Positions 3-18,630 are shown, counted from the first letter of the stretch. The stretch is 64,000 nt of DNA from Promethearchaeota archaeon (GCA_019058245.1 JAHPZJ010000017.1:43134-107133); one strand, 5' to 3'. A program made the numbers and translations. The notes: generated by a model not told the origin, from the sequence alone.

Positions 3-1703
3 GATGATCGAGATTTTGTAATGGAACAAGCCTTTAAAAAACAAGTTGGTGATTCTGACGTTGTCAATCAATACTCATACCGTATAATAAGAAAAGATGG
101 GGAGATCAGATGGTTCGAAATTCTCTCGAAAACTATAAATTATGAAGGACATCCGGCGGATTTAGCAATGATTATTGACATTACCGATAAAATAAAAGCT
201 GAAAGGCAGTTAAGAGATTCAGAAGATAAATTTTCTAAAGCATTCAATTCTAATGTTTTATCTATGAGCATATCATCTTTTGAAGATGGTAAATTCATTG
301 AAGTAAATGATGCTTTTTTAAATTATGTAGGTCATTCTAGGGAAGAAGTTATTGGTAAAACGACTGATGAGTTAGGTTTATGGGTTAGTGAAAAAGTTCG
401 GAAAAGATTTATAAGACTTATCGATAAACATGGAAGTCTATTTAATATAGAAACCAAAGATATACCAAGAACAGGAGAAACTAAATATGGTTTAGTCTCT
501 TATATTAAAATCATGCTTAATGAGAAGCCTTTTCTTCTTAGTATTCTAAATAACATAACTCCCCGGAAATTAGCTGAGCAGCAATTAAAAGAATCAGAAG
601 AAAAATTTAGATATATCGCAGATCATTCCTTATTGGGGATAACTATACTACAAGATGGTGTATTTAAATATTTTAATAAAAAAGTTGCTGAAACTTTTGG
701 AGGATCAGAAGAAGAGATTGAAAATTGGGGTCCGGGAGAATCAATAAAATTCATACATCCTGATGATCGTGACCTTGTAATAAGACAAGCACTTAAAGTA
801 CAACGTGGTGAATTTGATGATGCAGTTAACTATAAATATAGAATAGTAAAAAAAGATGGAAAAATTGGATGGCGTGAAACTTTCTCGAAATCAATAATTT
901 ATGAAGGTCGCCCAGCGGGTTTTGGAATTCACATTGATATTACAGAAAAGATCGAAGCGGAGCGGAAATTAAAAGAATCAAGGGAAAAATATCTTCGAGC
1001 ATATAATCAAGCAGAATTTTATAAAGATCTCTTTATCCATGATATAAATAATACTCTTCAGAGTCTTTATTCTTCTACCCAATTAATCGATATAGACTTA
1101 GAAGAAGATAGAAAAAATAATAATATTAATGAACTTATAGATATTATGTATAGACAGATTAATAGAGGGATAAATTTAATTTCTAATGTTCGTAAATTAT
1201 CTCAATTGGAAAATCATGAGATATCTCTCAAGGAAATCGATTTTTTTGATGTTTTAAAGCAATCCATAGAATTTTTAAAGAATACATTCCAAGATAGGAA
1301 CATTCAAATTAAATATGATATTTCTTGTGAGAATGTTCCAATCATTGGTAATGAACTACTTCAAGATGTGTTCGAGAATATTCTGATTAACTCAGTTAGA
1401 CATAACAATAATGATTGTGTAGAAATAGTAATTAAAACCTCACACGTAAAACAGGATGATAAATCTTATTGTAAACTAGAAATTATTGACAATGGCATTG
1501 GGATCGAGGATGAACGTAAGAAAAATGTGTTAAATCGGGCAGATCCTGATGCCAAAACTACATATGGAATGGGATTGGGCTTATCATTAGTCAAAAAAAT
1601 TATTGATAGTTATGGGGGAAAAATCTGGATTGAAGATAAAGTTGAAGGTGAGTATTCTAAGGGAACTAAAGTTATTTTATTAATACAAAAAGGTGGTTCT
1701 TGA
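3..1703 (+). CDS. Multi-PAS sensor histidine kinase (5'-partial, begins upstream of window)
   Basis: Frame is open from window start (DDRDFVMEQA). PAS/PAC repeats, H-box FYKDLFIHDINN, N-box ENILINSVRH, G1 DNGIGI, G2 GMGLGL. Confidence 0.92.
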   Translation, partial: DDRDFVMEQAFKKQVGDSDVVNQYSYRIIRKDGEIRWFEILSKTINYEGHPADLAMIIDITDKIKAERQLRDSEDKFSKAFNSNVLSMSISSFEDGKFIEVNDAFLNYVGHSREEVIGKTTDELGLWVSEKVRKRFIRLIDKHGSLFNIETKDIPRTGETKYGLVSYIKIMLNEKPFLLSILNNITPRKLAEQQLKESEEKFRYIADHSLLGITILQDGVFKYFNKKVAETFGGSEEEIENWGPGESIKFIHPDDRDLVIRQALKVQRGEFDDAVNYKYRIVKKDGKIGWRETFSKSIIYEGRPAGFGIHIDITEKIEAERKLKESREKYLRAYNQAEFYKDLFIHDINNTLQSLYSSTQLIDIDLEEDRKNNNINELIDIMYRQINRGINLISNVRKLSQLENHEISLKEIDFFDVLKQSIEFLKNTFQDRNIQIKYDISCENVPIIGNELLQDVFENILINSVRHNNNDCVEIVIKTSHVKQDDKSYCKLEIIDNGIGIEDERKKNVLNRADPDAKTTYGMGLGLSLVKKIIDSYGGKIWIEDKVEGEYSKGTKVILLIQKGGS

Positions 1704-2071
1704 TAACTACAGTTCTAATAGTTGATGATGATACAGATATTCTATTTTTGTATCAAAAAATGCTAGAATGTATTGGGGTAGAGGTGGTTGGAACAGCCCT
1801 TGATGGTGAAGAAGCCGTACAAATATTTAAATCATTTCAAAGAAAACCTGATATAATTCTAATGGATCATCGGATGCCAAAGAAAAATGGTCTTGAAGCC
1901 ACAAAAGAGATTTTAAGTATAAACAATCGTGTGAAAATTATTTTTGCGAGCGCTGATAGTAGTATTGAGAAGGAAGCCCTTTCAGTTGGCGCCATAAGTT
2001 TCAAAGAGAAACCCTTTAGTATCGAAAAAATAAAAAATAACCTCCTAAAAGCAATGAATTTAAATCAATAA
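1700..2071 (+). CDS. Single-domain response regulator receiver (CheY-like)
   Basis: VLIVDDD, DIILMDHRMP (phospho-Asp), KPF. TTG start overlaps the kinase TGA stop (TTGA), with GGTGG upstream. Confidence 0.92.
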   Translation: MITTVLIVDDDTDILFLYQKMLECIGVEVVGTALDGEEAVQIFKSFQRKPDIILMDHRMPKKNGLEATKEILSINNRVKIIFASADSSIEKEALSVGAISFKEKPFSIEKIKNNLLKAMNLNQ

Positions 2072-2495
2072 CTTCAGATAATTTAGACTAGAGAGATTCT
2101 ATTAATTTTAACATCAGGAGTTGGTATTACAAAGAGGAATAATATGTTAAATCTCAAAATAAAGGATTTAATTGATCTTATTAAGTTTCTTACTATTTAT
2201 AGAATGTACAATGAGAAAAATATTATTAATAAAATTATTTTAAGATCTGATCCAGATTAAGAAATTATCGAAATTATAATTACTGATAATTAATATTGTA
2301 TTTTTTTTAACTTTAAAATTTTAAAATTTATCAATAGTTACGAGTCTATAAGATTCCCTATTCTTTTGAAATTATAAAACAAAGCGATATTCTTAAAAAT
2401 AAATTCTACCATATTTAATTCAGTTTATTTTATAATTTAGTTACCACATCAGTAGTAAATATAAAATAAAACAGTAGACTGCTAAGGCTTTTTAG

Positions 2496-4778
2496 ATGAT
2501 AAATGAAATAAATGATGATTTAAATAAATTACTTGAAATACTTAAGATTATTACTGAACAGTCTCTCGTTGGGATAATAATAATACAGGATGGTAAATTA
2601 ATATATTTTAATAAGAGAGTATCTGAAACTTCTGGGTATTCAATAGAAGAGATTAAAGGTTGGAATCCTAATGATTTTCTTAAGGTTATCCATCCTGAAG
2701 ATCGGGAATCCGTCGCGGAACAAGCACGCAAAAGACAGTTAGCTGATCCAGAGGTTATCGATAAGAATAAATTTAGAATAATAAGGAAGAACGGGGAAAT
2801 TGCATGGATTAGAGTTTCTACGAAAAGAATAAATTATGAAGGTCGCACTGCAAATTTAGTAATGATTAATGATATAACTGATAAAATCAAATCTGAACAG
2901 AAATTAAAAGGATCAGAGGAAAAATTTAGAAATATCGCAGATCACTCTTTAGTGGCTATAAGTGTTCTACAAGATGGAGTATATAAATATTTTAATGACA
3001 AATTAGTTGAAATTAACGGATATTCTGCAGAGGAAATCAGAAATTGGGCTCCTAATGAATTTGCAAAAATAATCCATCCTGAAGATCGAGAATTTGTCAT
3101 GGAACAAGCACGTAAAAAGCAAACAGGTGATTCAGATGTTATCAATCAGTATCAATTTAGGATAAAAAGGAAAGATGGAGAGATTAGATGGATTGAAATT
3201 TTCTCAAAAACGATAAACTATGAAGGTCAGCCTGCAGATTTAATTATGACTAATGATATTACCGATAAAAAAAAGATTGAACAAAAATTGAAAGAATCAG
3301 AAGAAAAATTTAGAAATATCGCAGAACAATCTTTAATGGGGATATCTGTCACACAAGATGGTGTATTTAAATATTTTAATGATAGAGTTATTGAGAGCCT
3401 TGGATATTCAGTAGAAGAGATTGAAAGTTGGGGTCCTAATGAATTTGCAAAATTTATCTATCCTGAAGATCGAGAATTTGTCATGGAACAAGCACAGAAA
3501 AAACAAGCTGGAGATCCAGATGTTGTAAATCAATATCAATATAGAATAATAACGAAAGATGGAGTAATTAAATGGCTAGAAATATTTGCTAAAACAATAA
3601 ATTATGACGGTCATACTGCAGATTTAGCAATGACAGTTGATATTACCGATAAGATCGAAGCGGAACAGAAGCTAAAAGAATCTGAAGAAAAATTTTCTAA
3701 AGCGTTCAATTCTAATGCTTTAGCAATGTCTATAAGCACCATGGACGAAGGTATAATAATTGAAGTAAACGATGCCTTTCTAAAGCTTTTTGGGTTTTCT
3801 AGGAAAGAAATTACTGGTAAAACAGCTTCAGAAGCTAGATTAAAGGGTAGGGAGGAACGGAAAGAAATGTTAAGAACTATTGAAGAACAAGGAAGTATAA
3901 TTAATCATGAAACCGACTATAAAACTAAATCTGGGGAAGTTAGATACGGTTTATTTTCTTTCGTTAAAATTCTACTTAACGATAAACCCTTTCTTCTGAC
4001 AATTATAAATGATATTACACCATTGAAAATAGCTGAACAGAAATTAAAACAATCAAAGGAAAAATACCTTCGTGCATATAACCAAGTAGAGTTTTATAAA
4101 GACCTCTTTATCCATGATATAACTAATAATCTCCAGAGTCTTTATTCCTCTATCCAATTAATCGATATAAACTTAGATGAAAATTGTAAAAATAATACTA
4201 TTAAAGATTTCATAAATATTATATATAGACAGATAAATAGAGGTACAGAATTAGTTGCTAATGTTCGTAAATTGTCTCAATTGGAAGCGGAAGAAGTTTT
4301 CATTGATGAAATTGATGTTTTTGAGGTTTTAAATCGATCTATAGAATTTTTAAAGAATTTATTTCAAGATAAAAAAATTCAAATTAAATGGGATATATCA
4401 AGTGAAAAAGTCTTAATCCTTGGTAATAATCTACTTCAAGATGTATTCGAGAATATTCTTATCAACTCTGTTAGATATAATAATAATGATATTGCAGAAA
4501 TAATAATAAAAGCTTCACAAGTAGAACAAAATGGTATTTCTTATTGGAAACTTGAATTTATTGACAATGGTATCGGGATTGAGAATGAACGTAAGGAAAG
4601 CGTATTAAGTCGGGCAGATTTAGATTCTAAAACTACTTATGGAATGGGATTAGGGTTATCATTAGTTAAAAAAATCATTGAGAATTATGGAGGAAAAGTC
4701 TGGATTGAAGATAAAGTTGAAGGCGATTATTCTAAGGGAACTAATGTCATTTTATTAATGCAAAAAGGTGATCATTGA
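2496..4778 (+). CDS. Four-PAS sensor histidine kinase
   Basis: Repeated PAS modules, H-box HDITNN, HATPase G boxes; paralogue of 3..1703. Confidence 0.93.
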   Translation: MINEINDDLNKLLEILKIITEQSLVGIIIIQDGKLIYFNKRVSETSGYSIEEIKGWNPNDFLKVIHPEDRESVAEQARKRQLADPEVIDKNKFRIIRKNGEIAWIRVSTKRINYEGRTANLVMINDITDKIKSEQKLKGSEEKFRNIADHSLVAISVLQDGVYKYFNDKLVEINGYSAEEIRNWAPNEFAKIIHPEDREFVMEQARKKQTGDSDVINQYQFRIKRKDGEIRWIEIFSKTINYEGQPADLIMTNDITDKKKIEQKLKESEEKFRNIAEQSLMGISVTQDGVFKYFNDRVIESLGYSVEEIESWGPNEFAKFIYPEDREFVMEQAQKKQAGDPDVVNQYQYRIITKDGVIKWLEIFAKTINYDGHTADLAMTVDITDKIEAEQKLKESEEKFSKAFNSNALAMSISTMDEGIIIEVNDAFLKLFGFSRKEITGKTASEARLKGREERKEMLRTIEEQGSIINHETDYKTKSGEVRYGLFSFVKILLNDKPFLLTIINDITPLKIAEQKLKQSKEKYLRAYNQVEFYKDLFIHDITNNLQSLYSSIQLIDINLDENCKNNTIKDFINIIYRQINRGTELVANVRKLSQLEAEEVFIDEIDVFEVLNRSIEFLKNLFQDKKIQIKWDISSEKVLILGNNLLQDVFENILINSVRYNNNDIAEIIIKASQVEQNGISYWKLEFIDNGIGIENERKESVLSRADLDSKTTYGMGLGLSLVKKIIENYGGKVWIEDKVEGDYSKGTNVILLMQKGDH
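4590..4686 (+). repeat. 97-bp near-identical segment shared with 7832..7928 (HATPase G2 region)
   Basis: Manual alignment gives 95/97 identical, differing only in gatttagat vs gatctcgat. Confidence 0.85.
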
Positions 4779-5149
4779 TAACTATTTCAATTCTAATGGT
4801 TGATGATGATACAGACATTTTATTATTGTATCAAAAAATGCTAGAACATATTGGGTTTGAGGTAGTGGGAACAGCTAATAATGGTGAAGAAGCCGTACAA
4901 CTATTTAAATCATTTCAAAGAAAGCCTGATATAATTCTGATGGATCATCGGATGCCAAAGAAAAATGGCATTGAGACCACAAAAGAGATCTTAACTATAA
5001 ATAATCACTCTAAAATTATTTTCACGAGTGCTGATAGTAGTATTGAAAAAGAAGCCCTTTCAGTTGGAGCTTTAAGTTTTTTAAAAAAGCCTTTTAGTCT
5101 GGAAAGCCTAAAGGAAAATATTTTAAAAGCTATGATTTCAACTCAGTAA
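4775..5149 (+). CDS. Single-domain response regulator receiver
   Basis: Close paralogue of 1700..2071, with the same TTGA overlap with its kinase. Confidence 0.92.
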   Translation: MITISILMVDDDTDILLLYQKMLEHIGFEVVGTANNGEEAVQLFKSFQRKPDIILMDHRMPKKNGIETTKEILTINNHSKIIFTSADSSIEKEALSVGALSFLKKPFSLESLKENILKAMISTQ

Positions 5150-5356: not shown

Positions 5357-6703
5357 ATGAACCGAAAGAGAGTTATTATTATAGGTGCTCTTGGTTATGA
5401 CTTTCACCTATTTAATACTGTTTTTAAGGATAACGAAGAATATTTTATTGTAGCATTCACTATTGCGGGAGAACAAAACGTAGGCACCACAGAAGAAACC
5501 GAAAGAAAATTTCCTGCAGAGCTAGCAGGTAGTTTATATCCAAATGGAATTCCAATGGTATCAGAAGATAAATTAGAAGATTTAATAAAGAAGTATCAGG
5601 TTGACGAAGTGGTTTTTGCCTATTCTGATGTATCTCACGAAGAAGTGATGCATAAAGCATCAAGGGCACTTGCTGCTGGTGCAAATTATCGCCTGATTTC
5701 AGGTAGATTTACGCAACTTAAAGCAAATAAACCCGTAGTTGCTATCTGTGCAGTAAGAACTGGATGTGGAAAAAGTCAAGTTTCTCGAGCTACATATAGA
5801 TATTTAAAGAATAAGGGATATAAAGTCGTAGCTATTCGCGAACCAATGCCTTATGGTGATTTAGTCCAACAAAATGTCATGAGATTTGAGAATTATGATG
5901 ATCTAGATAAATATGATTGTACTATTGAAGAACGCGAGGAATATGAACCTTATATTGAGCAAGGTTTAGTTATTTATTCTGGTGTGGATTATGAAAAAAT
6001 CATACGCGAAGCTGAGAAAGAAGCCGATGTAATTATTTTTGATGGTGGAAACAACGAAATTTCATTCTACATCCCTGATCTGCTATTTATAGTAGTAGAT
6101 CCTCTTAGACCAGGACATGAAGTTTTATATCATCCTGGAGAAGTTAATGCTCGATATGCTGATGCGTTTGTAATTAATAAGATGAATAATGCGAAAGCTG
6201 AAGATGTAAAGATTGTAGAAGATAATTTAAAAGCTCTAAATCCAAATGCTACTAAAATTTTTACAAATTCAATTGTAACAGTCGAGAATGATATTGATCT
6301 AAACGGAAAAAAAGTAATTGTCGTTGAGGACGGTCCTACATTGACTCATGGCAATATGTCTATTGGAGCCGGATTTGTAGCAGCAATCAATAATGGAGCA
6401 GAAATAGTCGATCCTAGACCCTATTTAACTGGAGCAATGAAATTAGTTTTCGAAGAATTTCCCCACATAACTCAAATCGTTCCAGCAATGGGCTATAATG
6501 AACAACAGATTAAAGATATGGAAGAAACTTTAAATAATGCTGAAGCTGAAATTGTTATTGATGGTAGTCCAATAAATCTTGAAAAATTAATAAAATGTAA
6601 CAAACCAATTGTACGAGTCAATTACGATATCGAATCAATAAAAAGTCCAACAATAGAGCAAGTACTTGACAAGTTTATTGATAAATGTCTAAAGAATTCT
6701 TAA
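5357..6703 (+). CDS. arcE: Arginine synthetase ArcE-like / cyclic 2,3-diphosphoglycerate synthetase-like P-loop protein (COG2403 family)
   Basis: N-terminal RVIIIGAxGxDFHxFN, P-loop AVRTGCGKS, REPMPYGDL, TIEEREEYEP, DGGNN, VEDGPTLTHG. OTC and carbamate kinase genes lie nearby. Confidence 0.72.
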   Translation: MNRKRVIIIGALGYDFHLFNTVFKDNEEYFIVAFTIAGEQNVGTTEETERKFPAELAGSLYPNGIPMVSEDKLEDLIKKYQVDEVVFAYSDVSHEEVMHKASRALAAGANYRLISGRFTQLKANKPVVAICAVRTGCGKSQVSRATYRYLKNKGYKVVAIREPMPYGDLVQQNVMRFENYDDLDKYDCTIEEREEYEPYIEQGLVIYSGVDYEKIIREAEKEADVIIFDGGNNEISFYIPDLLFIVVDPLRPGHEVLYHPGEVNARYADAFVINKMNNAKAEDVKIVEDNLKALNPNATKIFTNSIVTVENDIDLNGKKVIVVEDGPTLTHGNMSIGAGFVAAINNGAEIVDPRPYLTGAMKLVFEEFPHITQIVPAMGYNEQQIKDMEETLNNAEAEIVIDGSPINLEKLIKCNKPIVRVNYDIESIKSPTIEQVLDKFIDKCLKNS

Positions 6704-6889: not shown

Positions 6890-8023
6890 ATGGTATATAA
6901 TTTGGATGAATCTATGGAAACATTTAAAATAATTACAGAACAATCCCTCGTTGGAATAATCATAATACAAGATGGTCTATTTAAATATTTTAATGATAGA
7001 CTTACTAAAACTACAGGATATTCAGCAGAAGAGATCAAAAGATGGACTCCTAATGAATTTGCAAAAACAATTTATCCTGAAGATCGGGAATTTATTATGG
7101 AAATGGCACGTAAAAAACAAGCGGGTGATCCAGAGGTTCCCTATCAATATTCATATAGAGCGATAAGAAAGAATGGAGAAGTCTATTGGGTTGAAGTTTT
7201 TTCAAAAACTATAATTTATAAAGGGCGTCCAGCAGATTTTTTAATGGGGTATGAGATTACAGATAAGGTCAAAGCAGACCAAAAGTTAATAGAAACCAAG
7301 GAAAAATATCAAAAAGCATACCATCAAGCAGAATTCTATAAAGATCTATTTATTCATGATATAAACAATACACTTCAGAGTCTTTATTCATCTATCCAAT
7401 TGCTTGAAATAGGTTTAGAGAATATTCAAGAAAATAATGAGATGAAAGAACTCATTAATATTATGGATAGACAGATCAAAAGGGGTGTAAATTTAATCTC
7501 TAATGTTCGTAAACTATCTCAATTGGAAGAACATGAAATTTCTATTAGGGAAATAGATCTCCTTGAATTTTTAAAACGATCTATCGAATTTATAAAGAAT
7601 TCATTTCAAGAGAGGAAAATTCAAATCAAAATTGATGTATTTAATGAGAAGATGTTAGTAAAAGGTAATGAGTTACTTCAAGATGTATTCGAGAATATTC
7701 TTATCAACTCAGTGAGACATAATAATAATGATATTGTAGAAATAATAATAAAAACTTTACAAATAGAACAAGATGATACAACCTACTATAAACTTGAGTT
7801 TATTGACAATGGAATTGGCATTGAGGATCAGCGTAAGGAAAGCGTATTAAGTCGGGCAGATCTCGATTCTAAAACTACTTATGGAATGGGATTAGGGTTA
7901 TCATTAGTTAAAAAAATCATTGAGAATTTTGGAGGAAAAATTTGGATTGAGGATAGAGTTAAAAATGATTACTCTAAGGGAATTAATGTAAATTTATTAC
8001 TGTCAGAGTATGTTTCTTCATAA
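6890..8023 (+). CDS. Single-PAS sensor histidine kinase
   Basis: One PAS domain, HDINN H-box, HATPase; third paralogue. Confidence 0.92.
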   Translation: MVYNLDESMETFKIITEQSLVGIIIIQDGLFKYFNDRLTKTTGYSAEEIKRWTPNEFAKTIYPEDREFIMEMARKKQAGDPEVPYQYSYRAIRKNGEVYWVEVFSKTIIYKGRPADFLMGYEITDKVKADQKLIETKEKYQKAYHQAEFYKDLFIHDINNTLQSLYSSIQLLEIGLENIQENNEMKELINIMDRQIKRGVNLISNVRKLSQLEEHEISIREIDLLEFLKRSIEFIKNSFQERKIQIKIDVFNEKMLVKGNELLQDVFENILINSVRHNNNDIVEIIIKTLQIEQDDTTYYKLEFIDNGIGIEDQRKESVLSRADLDSKTTYGMGLGLSLVKKIIENFGGKIWIEDRVKNDYSKGINVNLLLSEYVSS

Positions 8024-8169: not shown

Positions 8170-8682
8170 TTAGCTCTTTACGTTCTTTTTCATTTTTAAA
8201 AGATAAAGAACATAAATCACTAGTCCTATTGCAAATACACCAATATCCATTAATAAAGCTCCAACCCAAGTACTATATACTCCAAGGCCAATATTTACTG
8301 CATCATCGAAGAGAAGTGGAACTCCAGTTGCGTTGGGGTCTATAGCACTCATTGGCCAACCTATTAAGTCTAAAATCCAATGACTAAAAACTACAAGGCC
8401 AATGATAATGCTTATATTCATTATTTCCTTACTCCATATTGTTGAAATATTTTCCGAATTTTTCCTTGATTTTAGATTAAAAGTAATGAGTGTCGTAATA
8501 AAAAAAGCGATTAATGACCAAATGATTGACATAAAAAGTCCATGAGTTATCCATAGAGCAAATATAAAAATAAAAGATAGAAGATCCAGAACCATAGAGC
8601 TTAATAATAGCGCCCAGAGAGGTATTTGAGGAGCAAAACGTTTGGTTGCTAAACCTATTCCAAGATGAGCTAAAGCAGGCAT
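8170..8682 (-). CDS. Membrane protein, putative metal-dependent hydrolase (YdjM-like)
   Basis: Hydrophobic helices, N-terminal His (LAHLG), THGL and SHWILD motifs. Confidence 0.6.
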   Translation of the reverse strand: MPALAHLGIGLATKRFAPQIPLWALLLSSMVLDLLSFIFIFALWITHGLFMSIIWSLIAFFITTLITFNLKSRKNSENISTIWSKEIMNISIIIGLVVFSHWILDLIGWPMSAIDPNATGVPLLFDDAVNIGLGVYSTWVGALLMDIGVFAIGLVIYVLYLLKMKKNVKS

Positions 8683-8838: not shown

Positions 8839-11019
8839 ATGATTCTAGCAGAAAAAAAATATAAAATCCAAGAAATCCAAAGAGGGTATGTAAATCGGAC
8901 TCTATATATCAATCTTAGTAGAAATGAAATTTCTATAAAGCCTGTTTCTGAAGAAATGAAAGATAAATTTATTGGAGGAAAGGGCTTTGATTTATGGCTT
9001 ATGTGGAACTCTCTTCCAAAAGATCAAATTGTAAAATGGGATGATCCTGAGAATGAGATTTGCATATCTTCAGGTCCATTAGGGGGGAGTATTTTTTATC
9101 CAGGTTCTGGAAAGTCAATTGTTACTTCAATATCTCCTCTAACAGGCATTATTATCGATTCTAATGTTGGAGGATACTTCGGACCTTATCTTAAATTTTC
9201 AGGTTTTGACGCATTAGAAATACAAGGAAAAGCGAAAAAAGATGTTGTCATTTATATTGATGGTATTGAGGGAATAATTCAAATTGAAGAAGTTGAAGAT
9301 TCTGAGAATTTATCAGAATTTTCTCATGAACTTACTCAACAATTAACAGAGAAGTATGCTATAGATGATGCGGAAAAAAGACAAATCTCTGTCGTTAGCA
9401 GTGGTCCAGCAGCTAAACATTCAAAGTGGGGGATGTTAAATTTCTCGTGGTATTCAACAATGCGCAAACATGCTTCTGTTAAGCAAGCAGGTAGAGGGGG
9501 AATAGGAACTGTATTTAGAAATAAAACTATAAGAGCATTAGTTTGTCGTTCTCCCAGCGTTTCAATAAGATCAAATAATCCAGCGGATTTAGAAACTGCG
9601 CGAGAACTTGGAAAGATTCATAGTAAAGATATTATGGATGTGGATCCTTTACAGAATGAAATGCGAAGAGTTGGAACGGGTTATTTACCAGATATTATGA
9701 ATGTCGTTGATCTACTTCCAACCGAGAACTTTCGATATGGTTCTCATAAAGAAATTAAAGATAAAAATATATCTTATAGTCGTGAAGAAATGCGAAAGGT
9801 TTATCATGTCAAAGAAGGAACGGATGGATGCTGGATTGGGTGCACTATGAGTTGTTCACATTATACAACGGGTCATAAAGTTTTGACAGGTCCTTTTAAA
9901 GGTCAAGAAGTAATTGTAGATGGTCCAGAATATGAAACTATAGCGGGGTGTGGATCAAATTGGGGAGTATGGGATGTAAAATGGGTTCTTGAAGTTAATT
10001 TTTATTGTGATACCTATGGTTTAGACACCATTTCTGTCGGGACAGGAATTGCTTTTGTTATGGAATGCTATGAGAAAGGTATTCTAAACAAAGAAATCAC
10101 GGGAAACCTTGAACTTAAATTTGGAAATGCTGAAGCTGCTTTAGAGTTAATACATCAGATGGCACGAGGAGATGGTTTTGGTGTAATTGTAGGAAAAGGA
10201 ATTAGGGAAATGAAAAAATTTTTTACCGAAAACTATGGTGGTAATCCTCAGTTTCTTAATGACATAGGGATGGAGCACAAAGGATTAGAATTTTCAGAAT
10301 ATATGACAAAAGAATCACTCGCTCAGCAAGGAGGATATGGATTAGCTCTTAAAGGGCCACAACATGATGAAGCATGGTTAATTTTTGAGGATATGGTAAG
10401 AAATACAATTCCAACTTTTGAAGATAAAGCAAAAGCTTTACGCTGGTTCCCTTATTGGAGGACCTGGTTCTCTTTAAATGGACTTTGTAAGCTCCCTTGG
10501 AACGATGCTATTGGCCCTCAAAATAAAGAACTTCCAATAAAAGATCCTGAAACAGGAGAGCTTCTCCAAGCTCGTGTTCCTTATCATGTTGAATGGTATG
10601 CCAAATATTTTTCAGCAGTTACAGGAAGAATCTCGACTCCAGATGATCTTATCATGATGTCAGAGAGAGTATACAATTTTCAGAGAATTTTTAATATTCG
10701 TTTGGGACAAGGGTTGCGTTCTGGAGACTCTAATTTACCATATAGATCAATGGGACCAGTTACAACCTTAGAATATGAAAGTCGTCAAGAAAGATATGAT
10801 GATCAACTTAAAGAATTAGGATTTGATCTATCAGATAAAAATACAGAAGAAAAAATAATGATTCTTCGAAAACATCGTGTTGAACAATATTCAAGACTTC
10901 AAGATGCCGTTTATAAGGAACGTGGATGGAATTTGAAAGGCTGTCCTACAATAGAAAAAATAAAAGAGTTAGGGATTAATTATGAAGATATTATGTCTAT
11001 AATTAAATTATATCAATAA
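8839..11019 (+). CDS. Tungsten-dependent aldehyde:ferredoxin oxidoreductase family protein
   Basis: FIGGKG, SPLTG-DSNVGG, QAGRGGIG, CxxGCxxxC, DGPEYET, CDTYGLDTIS. Confidence 0.9.
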   Translation: MILAEKKYKIQEIQRGYVNRTLYINLSRNEISIKPVSEEMKDKFIGGKGFDLWLMWNSLPKDQIVKWDDPENEICISSGPLGGSIFYPGSGKSIVTSISPLTGIIIDSNVGGYFGPYLKFSGFDALEIQGKAKKDVVIYIDGIEGIIQIEEVEDSENLSEFSHELTQQLTEKYAIDDAEKRQISVVSSGPAAKHSKWGMLNFSWYSTMRKHASVKQAGRGGIGTVFRNKTIRALVCRSPSVSIRSNNPADLETARELGKIHSKDIMDVDPLQNEMRRVGTGYLPDIMNVVDLLPTENFRYGSHKEIKDKNISYSREEMRKVYHVKEGTDGCWIGCTMSCSHYTTGHKVLTGPFKGQEVIVDGPEYETIAGCGSNWGVWDVKWVLEVNFYCDTYGLDTISVGTGIAFVMECYEKGILNKEITGNLELKFGNAEAALELIHQMARGDGFGVIVGKGIREMKKFFTENYGGNPQFLNDIGMEHKGLEFSEYMTKESLAQQGGYGLALKGPQHDEAWLIFEDMVRNTIPTFEDKAKALRWFPYWRTWFSLNGLCKLPWNDAIGPQNKELPIKDPETGELLQARVPYHVEWYAKYFSAVTGRISTPDDLIMMSERVYNFQRIFNIRLGQGLRSGDSNLPYRSMGPVTTLEYESRQERYDDQLKELGFDLSDKNTEEKIMILRKHRVEQYSRLQDAVYKERGWNLKGCPTIEKIKELGINYEDIMSIIKLYQ

Positions 11020-11122
11020 TTATAAATCTTTTAAATTAAATCATTCCTATATTAATCTTTTCTATAATTTTGCATAGTTATATTTATTAATTATAAATAT
11101 TTAGATTATAATCCGAAATGAA

Positions 11123-13207
11123 ATGGACGATATAAAAAAGCATCCTATTTTAGATATACAAAAAAGAAAAAAGATTTCTTTTATTTTTAACGGTGAAAAA
11201 TTAATTGGATTTGAGGGAATGGTTATATCTTCAGCACTTTTTTTAAATAAAATAAAAATTTTTGGTCATCATATTAAAGATAATAGCCCTCAAGGTATAT
11301 TTTGTGCTAATGGGCAATGTGCTCAATGTAATGTAATTGTGAATAGTATTCCTGTAAAAGCATGTATGACTATTCTTAAGGAAGGTATGAGAATAGAAAG
11401 TTGTGATGGATTACCAGAGCTGCCTGCTGAAGATAATGAAGTAAATGTAAGCAATGCTGAAGTTGTTGAAATCGAAGTACTTATAATAGGTGCAGGTCCT
11501 GCAGGATTATCTGCTACAAAGATTTTAGGAGAACATAAGGTTAAAGTGATTTTAGTTGATGATAAGGGTAAACTTGGGGGTAAATTAGTTCTTCAAACAC
11601 ATAAATTCTTTGGTTCTCAGAAAGATGTATATGCTGGAAAACGTGGAATAGATATTGCTAAAATTTTAAGTAATTCTATTGAAGCTAATTCAAATGTTCA
11701 GATTTGGCTAAATAGTGTATGTTTAGCAGTATTTAGTGATGGGTTAGTTGGAATCTTGAAGAATAATAAAGAATATGTCTTAATAAAACCTAAATTTTTG
11801 TTTATTGCTACTGGAGCCAGAGAAAAACAGTTAGTTTTTCCGGGAAATACATTACCAGGAGTATATGGTGCTGGTGCCTTTCAAACTCTAGTTAATCGTG
11901 ATTTAATAAAGGCAGCAGATAAAATTTTCATTATAGGAGGAGGTAATGTAGGCTTAATTGCAGGATATCATGCAATCCAAGCAGGTATAGAAGTGGTTGG
12001 TTTAATTGAAGCTTTACCTCAGTGTACCGGATATAAAGTACATGAAAATAAACTTAGAAGATTAGGTGTTCCAATTTATACTCGTCATGTTATTATTTCA
12101 GCTAATGGTAAAAAAAATGTAGAATCTACAACAATTGCAGAAATTGATGATAATTCTAAAGTAATTTCTGGATCTGAAAAGACATATGCCTGTGATACCA
12201 TTTTAATTGCCGTAGGATTAAATCCAGTCAATGAACTTTATCAAAAAGCAAAAGATTTTGAATTCAAAGTATGGGAAGCTGGAGATGCTCAAGAAATTGC
12301 AGAGGCTTCAGCTGCAATATTTACAGGGAAAATTGAAGCTTTAAAGATACTTAAAGAAATTGGGATTGAATTTTCTGAAAATATCAGCGAATTAGAAGAA
12401 TCCGCTAATTTAATGAAAACTAAACCTCCACAGCCAATAAAAACTGAAATAAAATTTAAAGAAGAGGGCATATATCCTGTTTTTTATTGTAATCAAGAGA
12501 TACCATGTAATCCATGTACTACTGTATGTGAGCATGAACAAATTGAAACTATTGATGATTTGATAACACAATTACCTTATTTTAAGAATGAAAAAGAGTG
12601 TATTGGATGTGGAAAGTGTGTTGCTGTATGTCCAGGATTAGCTGTTGTATTAATAGATTATCGCAAAGATCGAAATAATCTATTAGTTACTTTTCCCTTT
12701 GAATTAACAGAGGATAAATTAGAGAAAGGACAAAAAGTTATTGTTGTTAGTAATGATGAGGAATTAGGTACATTTGAAATTCATAGAGCTCGAATTTTAA
12801 AAGACTATCCTAAAACTCAATTAGTTACCATAAAATTGCCTTCTAAAATTGCAAAACAAGCAGTAGCAATTAAACTATTTCAAACCAAATTCAATGAACC
12901 AATAGATTTATATCAAAAAACCTTAACTGATGATGATACAATAGTATGTAGATGTGAACGTGTGTCAGTAGGAGAAGTTCGAAAATGGATACGTTCAGGA
13001 GTGAAGGATTTCAATGAATTAAAAGCATTGACTAAAGTAGGAATGGGCGCTTGCGGAGGTAAAACTTGTACACCGTTAATTGAAAGAATATTTCGAGAGG
13101 AAGGTATCGCAATTGAAGATATTATACATGGAACAAAACGTCCTCTATTTATTGAAGTTCCGATGGGTATATTCGCTAATGCTAAAAATAAAAATGAGGA
13201 ACTCTAA
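11123..13207 (+). CDS. Proline dehydrogenase/sarcosine oxidase alpha-like flavoprotein (2Fe-2S + FAD/NAD + 4Fe-4S + BFD fusion)
   Basis: FCANGQCAQC, GAGPAG, IIGGGNVG, CNPC..CIGCGKCVAVCP, CRCE..GMGACGGKTC. Confidence 0.82.
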   Translation: MDDIKKHPILDIQKRKKISFIFNGEKLIGFEGMVISSALFLNKIKIFGHHIKDNSPQGIFCANGQCAQCNVIVNSIPVKACMTILKEGMRIESCDGLPELPAEDNEVNVSNAEVVEIEVLIIGAGPAGLSATKILGEHKVKVILVDDKGKLGGKLVLQTHKFFGSQKDVYAGKRGIDIAKILSNSIEANSNVQIWLNSVCLAVFSDGLVGILKNNKEYVLIKPKFLFIATGAREKQLVFPGNTLPGVYGAGAFQTLVNRDLIKAADKIFIIGGGNVGLIAGYHAIQAGIEVVGLIEALPQCTGYKVHENKLRRLGVPIYTRHVIISANGKKNVESTTIAEIDDNSKVISGSEKTYACDTILIAVGLNPVNELYQKAKDFEFKVWEAGDAQEIAEASAAIFTGKIEALKILKEIGIEFSENISELEESANLMKTKPPQPIKTEIKFKEEGIYPVFYCNQEIPCNPCTTVCEHEQIETIDDLITQLPYFKNEKECIGCGKCVAVCPGLAVVLIDYRKDRNNLLVTFPFELTEDKLEKGQKVIVVSNDEELGTFEIHRARILKDYPKTQLVTIKLPSKIAKQAVAIKLFQTKFNEPIDLYQKTLTDDDTIVCRCERVSVGEVRKWIRSGVKDFNELKALTKVGMGACGGKTCTPLIERIFREEGIAIEDIIHGTKRPLFIEVPMGIFANAKNKNEEL

Positions 13208-14374
13208 ATGGTTGAATATGATGTGATCATTATAGGTGCGGGTAGTGTTGGTGTTCCTACGGCTTTAGCTACTGCAAATGATGGATTAAAAACACTCGTA
13301 ATTGATTCACTGCCCTCAGTAGCACAAGCAGATAATAAACATGCTATTGGGGGAATTAGAGCTACTCACTCTCATAAAGGAAAAATATGGTTATGTCAAA
13401 GATCAATTGAAATTTTCTCTTCTTGGGAAGAACGATATGGAGATGATATTTGGTGGACTCAGGGAGGTTATACATTTTTAGCATTTACAAAAGAACATGA
13501 AAATCAGTTAAAGGAAACTGTAAAACTTCAAAAAAGTTATGGATTAAATATTAATTATGTTAATGCAAATAAAATTAAGAATTTAATACCAGGTATCAAT
13601 GATGATAATCTATTAGGGGGAACACATAGCCCTGAAGATGGTAATGCTTCCCCTCTATTATCATTACATGCATTTTTTCGAAGATCAAAAAATTTAGGAG
13701 CAAAATATCAATTCAAAGAAAAAGTTACAGATATATTAACTAAAAATAATAGAGTAATTGGGATCAAAACTACAAGAAGCCAATATAAAACACAATCAAT
13801 TATTAATGCCGCAGGCGCTCATGCTAAAGAAATTGGAAATATGATTGGCATAGATACTCCAATAGAACCAGAATCACATGAAGCAGGAATAACAGAACCA
13901 GTAAAAAAATTCTTTACTCCAATGGTAGTGGATATTAGTGTTTGTTATGATCCCAAATTTGGAAACTCGAGGAATTATTATTTCTATCAAAATAAAGAGG
14001 GTAAAATACTTTTTTGTATAACTCCCGATCCAAATATTATAGGAATGGATCGTAATGAAACTAGCTCTTTTCTACCTCAGATCTCCAAGAGAATGATCCA
14101 ACTTATTCCACGATTAAGGAACATAAAAGTAAGACGAACATGGCGAGGATTATATCCAATGACACCTGATGGGAATCCAATCATAGGAAAAGTAGATGAG
14201 ATGAAAGGATATTTTAATGCTATTGGAATGTGTGGTCAAGGATTTATGCTAGGACCTGGATTAGGAGAACTTCTCAGTCGTATTTTAACAGATAAAGAAA
14301 CTTCGAGAGATAAAGAGATCTTAGAAACTCTCTGTCATAATCGTGATTTTAGTATAGAAGAAGAATTAAAATAA
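13208..14374 (+). CDS. DAO-family FAD oxidoreductase (proline dehydrogenase/sarcosine oxidase beta-like)
   Basis: DVIIIGAGSVG, GGIRATHS, INAAG, WRGLYPMTPDGNPIIG, GQGFMLGPGLG. Abuts the alpha subunit. Confidence 0.85.
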   Translation: MVEYDVIIIGAGSVGVPTALATANDGLKTLVIDSLPSVAQADNKHAIGGIRATHSHKGKIWLCQRSIEIFSSWEERYGDDIWWTQGGYTFLAFTKEHENQLKETVKLQKSYGLNINYVNANKIKNLIPGINDDNLLGGTHSPEDGNASPLLSLHAFFRRSKNLGAKYQFKEKVTDILTKNNRVIGIKTTRSQYKTQSIINAAGAHAKEIGNMIGIDTPIEPESHEAGITEPVKKFFTPMVVDISVCYDPKFGNSRNYYFYQNKEGKILFCITPDPNIIGMDRNETSSFLPQISKRMIQLIPRLRNIKVRRTWRGLYPMTPDGNPIIGKVDEMKGYFNAIGMCGQGFMLGPGLGELLSRILTDKETSRDKEILETLCHNRDFSIEEELK

Positions 14375-14461: not shown

Positions 14462-15394
14462 ATGCTTCGACATTTATTAAAAGTCTCTGATTTTTCAAAG
14501 AATGAGTGCGAGAAGGTTATTAATAAAGCAATAGAGCTTAAGAAAAATCCTAAGAAATTTAATTCAATTTTAGAAGGTGAAACACTTTTGATGTTTTTTG
14601 AAAAACCCTCTTTAAGAACACGAATTTCATTTGAAACAGGAATGCAACAATTAGGAGGGCATGCAATTTTTTATTCGATTAAAGACTCTCCTTTAGGTAA
14701 AAAAGAAAACCTTTCAGATACTGCTAAGGTTGCTTCTAGATTTGTAAATATTATTGCTGCTCGGGTTTTTAAACGACAAGATATTAGGGATCTTGCTAAA
14801 TATGCAGAAGTTCCTGTGATAAATATGTTGGATGATTTTGCACACCCATGTCAGATTTTAGGAGATTTTCAGACTATTAAAGAGAAAAAAAACAGTTTAA
14901 CTACCATGAAACTATCATATTTTGGTGATGCTCATAATAATGTTACTTATGATTTAATGCGAATTTGTGCAATGTTTGGATGGAGAATGGATGTTGCATG
15001 CCCTGATGTTCCAGAATATTCACCTGAACAAATAGTTTTAGATGAGGTTTCTGATTTATCCAAAGAAACTGGTGCAGAAGTACAAGTTATTCATAATGCC
15101 ACAAATGCAGCTCAAGATTCTAGTGTAATATATACTGATAGTTGGATGAGCTATGGGATACCTCAAGAGCAGGAAGAAGAACGGAAAAAGGCTTTTATGC
15201 CTTTTCAAGTTACCCCTTCAATTATGAAAGTTGCAAAACCAGATGTGGTCTTTATGAATTGTTTGCCAGCAATGAGAGGATATGAACAAACAGCTGATGT
15301 AATTGATGGTCCTCAATCAATTGTTTTTGATCAAGCAGAAAATAGATTGCATATTCAAAAAGCAATTATGTTGTTTTTAAGAGAAAAATTTTAA
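14462..15394 (+). CDS. arcB: Ornithine carbamoyltransferase (probably catabolic)
   Basis: KPSLRTR, HPCQ, YTDSWMS, NCLP, DQAENRLH. Adjacent to carbamate kinase. Confidence 0.93.
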   Translation: MLRHLLKVSDFSKNECEKVINKAIELKKNPKKFNSILEGETLLMFFEKPSLRTRISFETGMQQLGGHAIFYSIKDSPLGKKENLSDTAKVASRFVNIIAARVFKRQDIRDLAKYAEVPVINMLDDFAHPCQILGDFQTIKEKKNSLTTMKLSYFGDAHNNVTYDLMRICAMFGWRMDVACPDVPEYSPEQIVLDEVSDLSKETGAEVQVIHNATNAAQDSSVIYTDSWMSYGIPQEQEEERKKAFMPFQVTPSIMKVAKPDVVFMNCLPAMRGYEQTADVIDGPQSIVFDQAENRLHIQKAIMLFLREKF

Positions 15395-15458: not shown

Positions 15459-16370
15459 TTGAAAACATTAATCGTAGCACTTGGAGGGAATGCCTTAATA
15501 AAATTTGGAGAAGAAGGTACCACAGAAGAACAATTTCGGAATTTAAGAGTTCCAATTAGTCAAATTGCGAAACTCGCAAGAGACTATAACATTATTATTA
15601 CACATGGTAATGGCCCACAAGTAGGAAATCTCTTATTACAGCAGGAAGCAACAGCATTCATCTCAAAAAGTCCTTTACAAATATTAGTAGCAGAAACTCA
15701 AGGTCAAATTGGATTTATGATTGAAAGTACTTTAGATGAAGAGCTTATGAAAATTGGGTTGGATCAAGAAAAACTCTTCCTTACTGTTTTAACTTATGTA
15801 GAAGTTGATCCTGAGGATCCTGCTTTTAAAAACCCTACAAAACCCGTTGGACCTGCTTATCCTGTACGTACAAAATTAGGTCAAATCAAAACAGCTAAGG
15901 GGTGGCGACGTGTAGTTCCTTCTCCTGAACCGATAAAAATTTACCAATGGCGTGAAATTAAAAAACTTATGGAGCTTGGAAGTTGGATCGTAATTGCCTG
16001 TGGAGGAGGAGGTATTCCTGTCATAAAAGAAGGGAATAATTTATATGGAGTCGAAGCTGTTATTGATAAGGATCTTGCTAGTGCAAAATTAGGAGAACAA
16101 ATTAAAGCAGATATTTTATTAATCGCAACTGATGTTGAGAAGGTTGCTTTAAATTATGGAAAATATAATGAAAAATTATTAGAAAAACTTTCTGTGTCAG
16201 AAGCAGAAGAATATCTTAAAGAAGGTCAATTTCCTGCAGGAAGTATGGGTCCAAAAGTAAAAGCAATAATTAATTTCTTAAAGTCTGGAGGAAAACAAGC
16301 AATGATCACATCTATTGATAAAATAAAACAAGCTCTCAATCTTAAAGCAGGAACTCACTTTTTTTATTAA
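15459..16370 (+). CDS. arcC: Carbamate kinase
   Basis: VALGGNAL, THGNGPQVG, DPAFKNPTKPVG, RRVVPSP, GGGGIPV, EAVIDKD, GSMGPK. Confidence 0.96.
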   Translation: MKTLIVALGGNALIKFGEEGTTEEQFRNLRVPISQIAKLARDYNIIITHGNGPQVGNLLLQQEATAFISKSPLQILVAETQGQIGFMIESTLDEELMKIGLDQEKLFLTVLTYVEVDPEDPAFKNPTKPVGPAYPVRTKLGQIKTAKGWRRVVPSPEPIKIYQWREIKKLMELGSWIVIACGGGGIPVIKEGNNLYGVEAVIDKDLASAKLGEQIKADILLIATDVEKVALNYGKYNEKLLEKLSVSEAEEYLKEGQFPAGSMGPKVKAIINFLKSGGKQAMITSIDKIKQALNLKAGTHFFY

Positions 16371-16423: not shown

Positions 16424-17695
16424 TTAAGAAATAAGTACTTTTTCAATAATTTCAAGAGCTAAATCAATTTCATTTTTTGTAATGACTAAAGGTGGAGCTA
16501 ATCTAATAATTGTTGAATGTGTATCTTTTGCTAAGATACCATTATCCTTTAATTGTTCGACAATTTGTCTAGCATCTTCTTCAAATTCAATTGCGATTAG
16601 TAATCCTTTTCCTCTAATTTCTTTAATAGGTATTTTAGTTCTTTTCTGAGAAATTTCATTTAATCTCTTTAAAAAGTAATCCCCCATCTCTTTAGCCCGT
16701 TCGGCAAGATTGTCCCGTAAATGAATATCTATAGATTTCATCCCAATTGCAGAAGCTAAAGGGTTTCCACCAAATGTGCTTCCATGAGTCCCTGGAGTTA
16801 TTACTTCTGGACCAATAATTTCTTTGGTACTTACACATGCAGATATTGGATAAACTCCACCACCAAGAGCTTTACCTAATAAGATCATATCTGGTTTCAC
16901 ATCCTCATGTTCACAAGCAAAAAATTTACCAGTTCGACAAAAACCAGTTTGAACTTCATCAGAAATTAACACTATATTATATTTTGTACAGATTTCTCTT
17001 ACTTTTTTTAAATATCCTTTGGGAGGAATCTTTACACCCGCTTCTCCTTGAATAGGTTCTACTAAGAAAGCAGCCACTTTTTCAGGACCAATTTCTAAGA
17101 TTGCCTTTTCCAATTCCTTCGCATCTCCATACGGAATAATATTAAATCCTGGGGTAAAGGGACCAAAGTATCCGTAATACCTTACTGCTGAAATGTCAGA
17201 ACTAAAACCCACAATAGTAACTGTTCTTCCATGAAAATTGTTTCTGCACACGATTATTCTTGCTTCATCTTTGGGGATTTTTTTTTTAATATAACCCCAA
17301 GCTCTTACTACTTTTATAGCAGTCGAAACAGCTTCTGTTCCTGTACTCATTGGAAGAGACATTATTCCACTATTATTTGGGTCATAAATGTGTGGTCCAA
17401 CAACATCTGCCAACATTTTAAGAAACGGTCCCATCATTGTGTTATGAAATGCCCGAGAAGTGAGAGTAACAATATCGGCTTGTTCTTTTAATGTCGCGAC
17501 AATTTCAGGATGACAATGACCCAAATTTTGACTTGAGTAGGCAGATAAACAATCTAAATATTTTTTACCTTCCGGATCATAAACCCAAACTCCTTCAGCC
17601 CGCGAAATTACTACTGGAATTGGATGATAATTATGTGCACCATATTCCAAATCCATTTTAATATAATCTTTTGAACTTGGCATTAAATATCCCAT
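16424..17695 (-). CDS. rocD: Ornithine--oxo-acid aminotransferase (class III PLP)
   Basis: YGAHNYHP, YLDCLSAYS, EPIQGEAG, DEVQTG, LGKALGGG, HGSTFGGNP. Confidence 0.93.
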   Translation of the reverse strand: MGYLMPSSKDYIKMDLEYGAHNYHPIPVVISRAEGVWVYDPEGKKYLDCLSAYSSQNLGHCHPEIVATLKEQADIVTLTSRAFHNTMMGPFLKMLADVVGPHIYDPNNSGIMSLPMSTGTEAVSTAIKVVRAWGYIKKKIPKDEARIIVCRNNFHGRTVTIVGFSSDISAVRYYGYFGPFTPGFNIIPYGDAKELEKAILEIGPEKVAAFLVEPIQGEAGVKIPPKGYLKKVREICTKYNIVLISDEVQTGFCRTGKFFACEHEDVKPDMILLGKALGGGVYPISACVSTKEIIGPEVITPGTHGSTFGGNPLASAIGMKSIDIHLRDNLAERAKEMGDYFLKRLNEISQKRTKIPIKEIRGKGLLIAIEFEEDARQIVEQLKDNGILAKDTHSTIIRLAPPLVITKNEIDLALEIIEKVLIS

Positions 17696-17890: not shown

Positions 17891-18630
17891 TTATTCTTGC
17901 ACTTGAATAATTTCTGTTGATTCTTTTTCTTCCCTAAGATCTAATAGTTTTAATATTTCAACACCAAAAATGTTTGATAAGATTTTATTCATCTCAGATC
18001 CTCCCATATAACCCTGACATCCTAAATGAAGTTTATGAAAATGTCCTCCTAATTTAGTCTCAACCTCTTTTATGAAATTAATAACTTTTTCTTCTAAAGA
18101 TTGGGATGGCGTATCATTTAATAAAAATACTACTTTAAATTCTCCATTTGTAAAGAGCCCTCCCGATAAATATCCATCTCTAAATTTAATCGATTATAAA
18201 GTTTCAAATCTGGATCAAGTTGAATAATATATGTTTGATAATGCTCTGGATATTGATTTTCTATGATTTTTTTAAAAGCATCACCAGTACTACTAATACC
18301 AATTAGAAAAATATCTTTTATAGCTTGAATGACAGTATTCATCTCATTAACATTTGGTAAAATTATTCGAACTCCACATAAATCATTTATCTCCGCAATA
18401 GGATCTGTATATTTTACATCAGGACTAAATAATTTATTGGCAAAACTTGAAATTGTCTTTACCCTGTTTTGAATAATATGTTCTGAAGAACACCCTTGTA
18501 CTATGTTTTCAAGAATAGTATCTATAATCTTAGAGTACTCTTCATAGAGAGGGCGTAGTTCTTTATATCTGTTAATTTGTTCTTCATAAAACTTACGTTG
18601 TTCTATTTCCATAGTTACTTTTTCCCTCAA
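17891..18630 (-). pseudogene. RelA/SpoT nucleotidyltransferase-like N-terminal part continuing in the -1 frame (internally deleted pseudogene or frameshift-fused gene)
   Basis: ORF 18130..18630 has RVKTISS and DLCGVRII but lacks the EIQxRT motif. A start-less 100-codon frame (18193..17891) overlaps its end and reads like protein (GEFKVVFLLNDTPSQSLEEKVINFIKEVETKL). Confidence 0.6.

Follow-up and report, generated by a model that had tools for sequence, protein, structure and literature searches.

A long-form aldehyde oxidoreductase gene within an arginine and proline catabolic cluster of a lokiarchaeial genome: a candidate glutamate-5-semialdehyde:ferredoxin oxidoreductase

The oxidation of glutamate-5-semialdehyde (GSA) to glutamate is the reaction of pyrroline-5-carboxylate (P5C) dehydrogenase (P5CDH; ALDH4/RocA/PruA), an NAD-dependent aldehyde dehydrogenase (ALDH) with NAD+ as acceptor, and in PutA this function is coupled to proline dehydrogenase (PDH). 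Here we describe a stretch of 64,000 nucleotides, hereafter referred to as the window, from contig 17 of a lokiarchaeial (Asgard) metagenome-assembled genome (MAG) of 3.09 Mb and 76% completeness (Promethearchaeota archaeon, GCA_019058245.1, JAHPZJ010000017.1:43134-107133), in which a gene encoding a tungsten-type aldehyde oxidoreductase (AOR) heads a cluster of arginine, ornithine and proline catabolic genes. The G+C content of the window is approximately 30%, and the nearest relatives of its proteins are found in Promethearchaeota/Lokiarchaeia MAGs. The carbon reaction proposed for this AOR is that of P5CDH and, as in PutA, the gene for GSA oxidation would be coupled to that for PDH; however, the window AOR is a pterin/FeS protein for which ferredoxin or flavodoxin is the proposed acceptor, and it would be an analogue of P5CDH rather than a homologue. 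No ALDH domain was detected in it with Pfam, and the likeness is claimed for function, not for family membership.

Formaldehyde ferredoxin oxidoreductase (FOR) of Pyrococcus furiosus (1B25/1B4N) resembles the window AOR in its fold (template modelling (TM) score of 0.88, the top Foldseek match) and in four second-shell residues. Of the substrates of FOR, glutaric dialdehyde has the lowest Km, and the enzyme also binds glutarate; a C5 semialdehyde has long been suspected to be its true substrate (PMC12096430). The two proteins differ in that they share only 27% identity, the window AOR being approximately 110 residues longer, with six inserts and a changed motif at the catalytic His; furthermore, no genetic association of FOR with proline or ornithine genes has been reported, nor has an amino-semialdehyde activity been assigned to it. 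In AorABC of Aromatoleum (8C0Z) and in WOR1 (9MQX), the pterin subunit is wired via a polyferredoxin to a flavin/NAD(P) module, and in the bacterial operons described below the gene for the same polyferredoxin immediately precedes that of the AOR. These enzymes nonetheless belong to another clade (22-23% identity), and the flavin module found here is an amine dehydrogenase pair, not AorC/HydABC.

The PDH1/PDH2 complex of Pyrococcus horikoshii (1Y56) provides the best solved relatives of both flavoprotein genes in the window, is likewise encoded by adjacent genes and includes ferredoxin-like parts. It differs in that the lokiarchaeial alpha subunit is a 694-aa fusion (2Fe-2S, 4Fe-4S and BFD-like), whilst in Bacillota the corresponding parts are split over three genes. 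To our knowledge, no AOR partner has been described for the Pyrococcus PDH enzymes. The ArcE pathway of Thermococcus kodakarensis shares with the window an ArcE or ArcE-like protein, ornithine carbamoyltransferase (OTC), carbamate kinase (CK) and ornithine delta-aminotransferase (OAT), with ArcE in place of arginine deiminase; in that organism, however, the pathway feeds proline synthesis without an AOR or PDH, whereas the lokiarchaeial genes form one cluster with both (PMC11032458).

The best available explanation for the window enzyme, and for the bacterial operons that resemble its cluster, is that the AOR oxidises GSA to glutamate in place of P5CDH, a reading drawn from sequence and gene context in which we place moderate confidence. 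The genes on which it is based are as follows.

5357..6703, + strand: probable ArcE-type arginine synthetase, a 448-aa P-loop protein (no Pfam/NCBIfam match; P-loop and synteny)
8839..11019, + strand: long-form AOR-family pterin (W/Mo) oxidoreductase, 726 aa, candidate glutamate-5-semialdehyde:ferredoxin oxidoreductase (PF02730, 1.2e-46; PF01314, 1.8e-95)
11123..13207, + strand: alpha subunit of an archaeal-type (P. horikoshii PDH-like) amine dehydrogenase, 694 aa (Pfam domains; 1y56_A)
13208..14374, + strand: beta (catalytic, DAO-family) subunit, 388 aa, of a probable L-proline dehydrogenase yielding P5C (PF01266, 4.4e-57; 1y56_B)
14462..15394, + strand: OTC, presumed to act in the catabolic direction (TIGR00658, 359.8 bits, cut-off 280.85)
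15459..16370, + strand: CK (TIGR00746, 367.1 bits, cut-off 358.25)
16424..17695, - strand: OAT (ornithine to GSA), convergent on the cluster (TIGR01885, 523.3 bits, cut-off 378.4)

OTC, CK and OAT all exceed curated equivalog cut-offs. The original prediction, which was made from the window sequence, had described a run of AOR, PDH-alpha, PDH-beta, OTC (arcB) and CK (arcC) converging on OAT (rocD), and the open reading frames (ORFs) are exactly as it claimed. It had also described the 726-aa AOR as divergent, in agreement with the best solved relatives, 1AOR and 1B25, being only 26-27% identical, and had reported no P5CDH in the window, which holds and extends to the genome (76% complete), where the lone ALDH falls far below the P5CDH cut-offs.

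In the proposed pathway, the ArcE-like enzyme would convert arginine to citrulline with a yield of ATP, OTC would convert citrulline to ornithine and carbamoyl phosphate, CK would generate ATP from the carbamoyl phosphate, and OAT would convert ornithine to GSA. The alpha/beta flavoenzyme would oxidise proline to P5C, which opens to GSA, and the AOR would oxidise GSA to L-glutamate, replacing the NAD-dependent P5CDH, which none of the 301 sampled Asgard genomes was found to encode. Electrons from the AOR might pass via its [4Fe-4S] cluster to ferredoxin or flavodoxin, or directly into the Fe-S-rich alpha subunit. It is the substrate, direction, electron acceptor and any physical complex of the AOR that we infer here.

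Both AFOR_N (PF02730) and AFOR_C domains 2 and 3 (PF01314) were identified in the AOR with Pfam, and solved structures of the family are distant relatives only (1AOR at 9e-53; identities of 19-27%). An AlphaFold model, generated with a 30-sequence alignment as input, had a pLDDT of 94 and a pTM of 0.93, and its fold matches in Foldseek were exclusively AOR-family structures, the first being FOR 1B25 (TM 0.88) and the next 1AOR (TM 0.89). Comparison with six AOR-family structures gave TM scores of 0.85-0.90, BamB being the weakest family match. The FeS ligands C331, C335, C339 and C550 are retained, the first three being placed by alignment to 1AOR, and show little or no variation among 138 family members. 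Four residues, Thr243, Glu313, Tyr427 and His448 (P. furiosus numbering), mark aldehyde-oxidising AORs, as opposed to BamB/YdhV (PMC12096430), and alignment to 1AOR placed all four in the window protein as T280 (GT), E366 (PEYE), Y487 (SEY) and H509 (PQH). With every residue needed being retained, the window AOR is predicted to be competent for aldehyde oxidation, and its sequence assigns it to the aldehyde-oxidising type within the AOR/WOR family, outside all structurally characterised clades.

The phylogeny of the AOR was inferred with FastTree from 154 sequences, comprising the window AOR, five paralogues from its genome, clade members from Asgard archaea and Bacillota, and a further 104 sequences chosen to represent the results of an exhaustive search; placement relative to FOR, GAPOR and WOR5 is based on identities and fold scores. 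It was found that the window AOR lies in a long-form clade of 63 rows, separated with 99% local support from all ordinary AORs of approximately 600 aa, including the paralogues of its own genome, and that a core of 51 rows (96%) unites the Bacillota and Asgard members. Members of this clade share at least 35-38% identity with the window AOR, against 27% for 1B25, which would place the protein outside the FOR clade. The clade is set apart from other AORs by six inserts and by about 60 clade-specific residues that are invariant within it; around the catalytic His, for instance, it reads K505-G-P-Q-H509-D-E, where other AORs mostly have R-G-A/G-C-H-L-R. The host genome encodes eight AOR-family genes in all. 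A second paralogue in the window, at 42779-43945 (ORF of 653 aa), is of the ordinary short type.

The start of the beta gene directly follows the alpha stop codon. The Pfam domains of alpha are Fer2_4 (residues 16-93), Pyr_redox_2 (118-377), a 4Fe-4S dicluster (460-507) and a BFD-like 2Fe-2S domain (607-659), and its best solved relative is 1y56_A (PH1363; 1.7e-21), whilst beta is closest among solved structures to 1y56_B, which is the beta subunit of the L-proline dehydrogenase complex of P. horikoshii (3.3e-54, 187.7 bits). The pair is thus similar in both subunits to a known PDH, and is probably an L-proline dehydrogenase giving P5C, in favour of which the proline racemase, ProC and prolidase genes in bacterial operons also speak. 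Alternatively, alpha/beta may be an oxidoreductase of the sarcosine, N-methyl-amino-acid or opine type, with the AOR removing formaldehyde or another aldehyde, or being linked to it by electron transfer only. In keeping with this, beta matches soxB- and ThiO-type models, albeit below their cut-offs, and homologues occur in more than 1000 plasmid records, largely rhizobial and agrobacterial; moreover, an oxidase releasing arginine from octopine or nopaline would suit an arginine-catabolic context. However, these plasmid-borne relatives reached at best 102-167 bits against beta, with an identity of at most 30%, and among characterised proteins it is the P. horikoshii complex to which both subunits are most similar, at 187.7 bits for beta. 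Alpha also does not have the folate-binding C-terminal part of sarcosine oxidase alpha, opine oxidation gives keto acids rather than aldehydes, and the bacterial operons contain genes for proline racemase, ProC or prolidase, all of which render the alternative improbable.

The 448-aa ORF upstream of the AOR gave zero Pfam or NCBIfam matches, though a GxxGxGKS P-loop is evident in its translation and its homologues carry the labels ‘predicted GTPase’ or ‘cyclic 2,3-diphosphoglycerate synthase’. Homologues of ArcE (TK2200), which catalyses the reaction of arginine, ADP and phosphate to citrulline, NH3 and ATP, were likewise misnamed before its discovery, sit near arcB/arcC and have been reported in Lokiarchaeota (PMC11032458). 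Because the labels match those of ArcE homologues and no arginine deiminase (PF02274) was found in the host genome (76% complete), the ORF is probably ArcE, being likened to TK2200 by annotation pattern, P-loop, synteny with arcB/arcC and this lack of a deiminase.

To establish how far the arrangement extends among Asgard archaea, 80 related loci were fetched, and partner counts were taken from the 35 loci with at least 9 kb of downstream flank. In 47 of the 80 loci the AOR is followed by an alpha gene at a distance of up to 5 kb, and in 37 at a distance of up to 300 nt. All 35 syntenic loci with enough flank carried beta, with OTC in 34 and, inside the flank retrieved, CK in 23 and OAT, in convergent orientation, in 21, whilst 36 of 38 syntenic loci carried an ArcE-like gene on the upstream side of the AOR, in 16 cases immediately adjacent to it. 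The original prediction had staked itself on the co-localisation of orthologues with proline and ornithine catabolic genes, and this was found, both in the 47/80 Asgard loci and in operons of Bacillota. A co-oriented flavodoxin gene (187 aa) lies between ArcE and the AOR in 16 loci; the window has a kinase and a 170-aa gene in that position. These, and a gene on the far side of OAT, are the following.

6890-8023, + strand: PAS histidine kinase, between the ArcE-like gene and the AOR
8170-8682, - strand: 170-aa gene without a Pfam match, between the ArcE-like gene and the AOR
18130-18630, - strand: 166-aa protein with a RelA/SpoT nucleotidyltransferase region, just past OAT

Further upstream of the cluster (window positions 21-5149) are two tandem pairs, each of a multi-PAS histidine kinase (560 and 760 aa) and a single-domain response regulator (123 and 124 aa). 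Amongst other recurring neighbours, a co-oriented gene for a D-aminoacylase-like amidohydrolase (Amidohydro_3, about 540-577 aa; e.g. L022:7999-9621) follows beta in 11 lokiarchaeial clusters and is a third recurring partner; a homologue (28% identity, E value of 2e-69; L082:13338-15071) occurs two genes downstream of a Clostridia AOR, past an aminotransferase. Some clusters have a co-oriented CitMHS-type transporter between OTC and CK, and six lokiarchaeial clusters (L016:5814-7085 and five others) have a co-oriented gene for ThiC, the radical-SAM thiamine pyrimidine synthase, between the AOR and alpha. Five contigs with AORs 56-95% identical to that of the window (L009, L014, L055, L069 and L081) are titled Odinarchaeota, Hermodarchaeota, Bathyarchaeia and even Rikenellaceae, which are probably binning or labelling errors in public MAGs.

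Outside the Archaea, the long-form clade was identified in 14 of 200 genomes of the bacterial class that includes the Bacillota locus L083, where alpha- and beta-like genes lie upstream of an AOR 53% identical to that of the window. Seventeen bacterial loci were read, including two from the genome of L082. Nine of these form an operon of Fer2_4, alphaN, alphaC, beta, polyferredoxin and AOR, three consist of ProC, polyferredoxin and AOR, and the other five have the polyferredoxin-AOR pair either alone or with 2-oxoacid:ferredoxin oxidoreductase genes. In all bacterial operons with alpha/beta, the polyferredoxin gene is placed between beta and the AOR. In L083, an SNF-family transporter and a proline racemase (491 bits, best model) are encoded directly upstream, L116 has the same transporter type, the last gene of the L096 operon encodes an M24 peptidase with a creatinase/prolidase N-domain, and a sigma-54 activator precedes three of the bacterial operons. 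P5C/GSA is the sole metabolite common to PDH (as product), ProC (as substrate) and OAT (as product), and it is because all partners have this one metabolite in common that its oxidation by the AOR is the best explanation of the arrangement.

The bacterial beta proteins are merely 31-32% identical to those of Lokiarchaeia (about 31-34% for alpha/beta), and therefore the linkage is either old or independently maintained. This bears on the suggestion that the adjacency has no functional meaning and that the AOR is a general aldehyde-detoxifying enzyme, as might be supposed from the eight AOR paralogues of the genome and from the distance between the AOR and alpha/beta genes in Heimdall-type and other families. 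Such an account seems highly unlikely, given that linkage to alpha/beta is confined to the long-form clade and not shared by the other paralogues, and that the link recurs in Asgard archaea and Bacillota at 53% identity for the AOR and about 31-34% for alpha/beta.

Searches with the canonical P5CDH model (NF002852) revealed no passing sequence in any of 301 Asgard genomes (best score of 435 bits, against a cut-off of 648), whilst three of the control genomes passed. The only ALDH-family gene of the host genome, located on another contig, scored best as a lactaldehyde dehydrogenase (445 bits), and reached 281-303 bits against P5CDH models with cut-offs of 648-660. In the same 301 genomes, the AOR clade was present in 166, the beta orthologue in 79 and OAT above cut-off in 102. 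The AOR, beta and OAT co-occur in families f1, f2, f7, f24 and f29. Counted from these tables, the co-occurrence with PDH and OAT genes that the original prediction had put forward as a check holds for 66 of the 79 beta-positive and 82 of the 103 OAT-positive genomes, but not for family f9 or the lokiarchaeial genera g2 and g6, in which the AOR occurs without either. Of the 13 beta-positive genomes without the AOR, seven belong to the family of the window organism, and at least four of those seven were partial hits or lay at a contig end.

Several observations weigh against the assignment of GSA oxidation to the AOR. Related genomes are not independent samples, and hence the co-occurrence counts overstate the case. 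Of the 76 genomes of family f9 sampled, 60 have the AOR clade (56-63% identity), yet OAT and beta orthologues were found in none of the 76, and five genomes of 97-99% completeness gave no ProC, no ProA and, even at the looser threshold of E <= 1e-10, no beta-like gene. The f9 AORs have the clade-specific active-site residues, so a different specificity is not evident from sequence. Their genes adjoin divergent Hdr/Mvh-like genes and phosphoenolpyruvate carboxykinase (PEPCK), which suggests that the f9 AOR is linked to a bifurcating module rather than to amino-acid genes. In loci L127-L138 of this family, the AOR is back to back with a gene for a 928-aa HdrA-like/NfnB-GltD-like fusion, HdrC, HdrB, HdrA and MvhD, often with a GTP-type PEPCK. 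Likewise, an orthologous AOR has been retained in genera g2 and g6, where OAT and beta are lacking and ProA is present in 5/5; the AORs of these genera are nested among cluster-bearing ones in the tree. The neighbourhood of the g2/g6 AOR (pyrH, a pantoate-kinase-like gene and proC) was considered as an operon and rejected, its strands being mixed and the case too weak. Conversely, OAT is present in 9 of 11 genomes of family f16, which have no AOR. In f7, f24 and f29 the genes co-occur but are dispersed, and in those f2, f7 and f24 genomes that are complete or consist of one contig, hundreds of kb separate the three genes. Characterised AORs are mostly broad in substrate range (PMC12096430) and, in principle, the one generic ALDH of the host could oxidise GSA.

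These data bear most directly on the possibility that the oxidoreductases of the long-form clade act more broadly, on acidic or amino semialdehydes (those of succinate, glutarate or aminoadipate, for example) or on short aldehydes of amino-acid fermentation, GSA being one substrate in cluster-bearing lineages only. Family f9 retains the active-site signature without a known source of GSA, and the five near-complete f9 genomes encode 2-6 class-III (omega) aminotransferases each; genera g2 and g6 have retained the AOR after loss of the cluster; and the wide range of most characterised AORs (PMC12096430) points the same way. On the other hand, the partners found in two domains of life (PDH alpha/beta, ProC, OAT, proline racemase and prolidase) indicate one metabolite, and the approximately 60 invariant clade-specific residues, many of which are near the catalytic His, suggest a specialised pocket. 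We therefore regard a broad specificity as rather unlikely, though deserving of serious consideration. As for the claim of the original prediction that this AOR subfamily oxidises GSA, it stands as the best explanation for the window enzyme and the bacterial operons, and is weaker across the clade given f9, g2/g6 and the dispersed genes; a GSA-oxidising role for the whole long-form clade is not established.

The reaction may also be considered in the opposite direction, with reduced ferredoxin driving glutamate to GSA for an ATP-free synthesis of proline or ornithine, or with GSA oxidation powering the conversion of P5C to proline by alpha/beta. AORs are reversible (PMC12096430), the ProC-polyferredoxin-AOR operon occurs in three bacterial genomes, two of which have no ProA above cut-off, and ProC turned up in no more than 5 of the 15 genomes of the window organism’s own genus. 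However, the remaining genome with that operon does have ProA, as do all those of g2 and g6, where the AOR is near proC, and the lokiarchaeial cluster is built around the ATP-yielding catabolic ArcE, OTC and CK. ProC is present in 16/16 genomes of g4, a genus with the full cluster, and therefore alpha/beta does not replace ProC; its role as a ProC substitute was rejected. The ATP-free reverse reading is likewise not supported by the distribution of ProA, a GSA dismutation is not favoured by the ProA and ProC distributions either, and we consider both distinctly improbable.

With oxidation of GSA to glutamate as the preferred reading, a further, speculative step may be envisaged. With potentials near -0.12 V for the P5C/proline couple and near -0.58 V for acid/aldehyde couples, a non-respiring fermenter would be unable to pass electrons from proline to NAD+ or ferredoxin unaided, whereas the complete four-electron conversion of proline to glutamate can, overall, proceed with NAD+. 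The AOR, alpha/beta and ferredoxin, flavodoxin or polyferredoxin could constitute one machine, an anaerobic, non-homologous counterpart of PutA that carries proline through to glutamate by electron confurcation over four electrons. Low-potential electrons from the aldehyde step would merge with high-potential electrons from the proline step in the Fe-S/flavin alpha subunit, and would reduce NAD(P)+ or make H2. Alpha consists of a two-dinucleotide flavoprotein module with three Fe-S domains, and an electron-bifurcating AOR complex is already known (PDB 9MQX); it is because of these domains, the polyferredoxin between beta and the AOR, and this precedent that a confurcating PutA-like complex is reasonable as speculation, although we consider it unlikely to be correct in this form. 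If true, it would explain both proline oxidation by fermenting, non-respiring Asgard archaea and clostridia and the retention of one operon across two domains of life.

In a limited literature search, no paper was found assigning GSA oxidation to an AOR, although such a paper may exist, nor was any found that joined aldehyde ferredoxin oxidoreductase with pyrroline-5-carboxylate, or AOR with proline dehydrogenase and Asgard; this accords with the original prediction, which knew of no such activity assigned to this clade. The main text of the Prometheoarchaeum isolation paper mentions neither arginine, proline nor aldehyde. New in the present analysis are the upstream ArcE-like candidate, the distinct long-form AOR clade, the synteny among Asgard archaea, the Bacillota operons and the lack of a detectable P5CDH in the 301 genomes.

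The amino-acid fermentation of Asgard archaea is central to models of eukaryote origins, and an AOR acting on GSA would supply the missing final reaction of arginine and proline breakdown in Lokiarchaeia and in further Asgard lineages. It would also represent a new physiological substrate and a new activity for the tungsten AOR family, most clades of which are still hypothetical, and the window AOR provides a concrete, assayable target. A ferredoxin-linked route from GSA to glutamate would conserve more low-potential reducing power than the NAD-dependent enzyme, and the occurrence of the same operon in uncultured Bacillota suggests that it may be a general anaerobic solution for the oxidation of proline.

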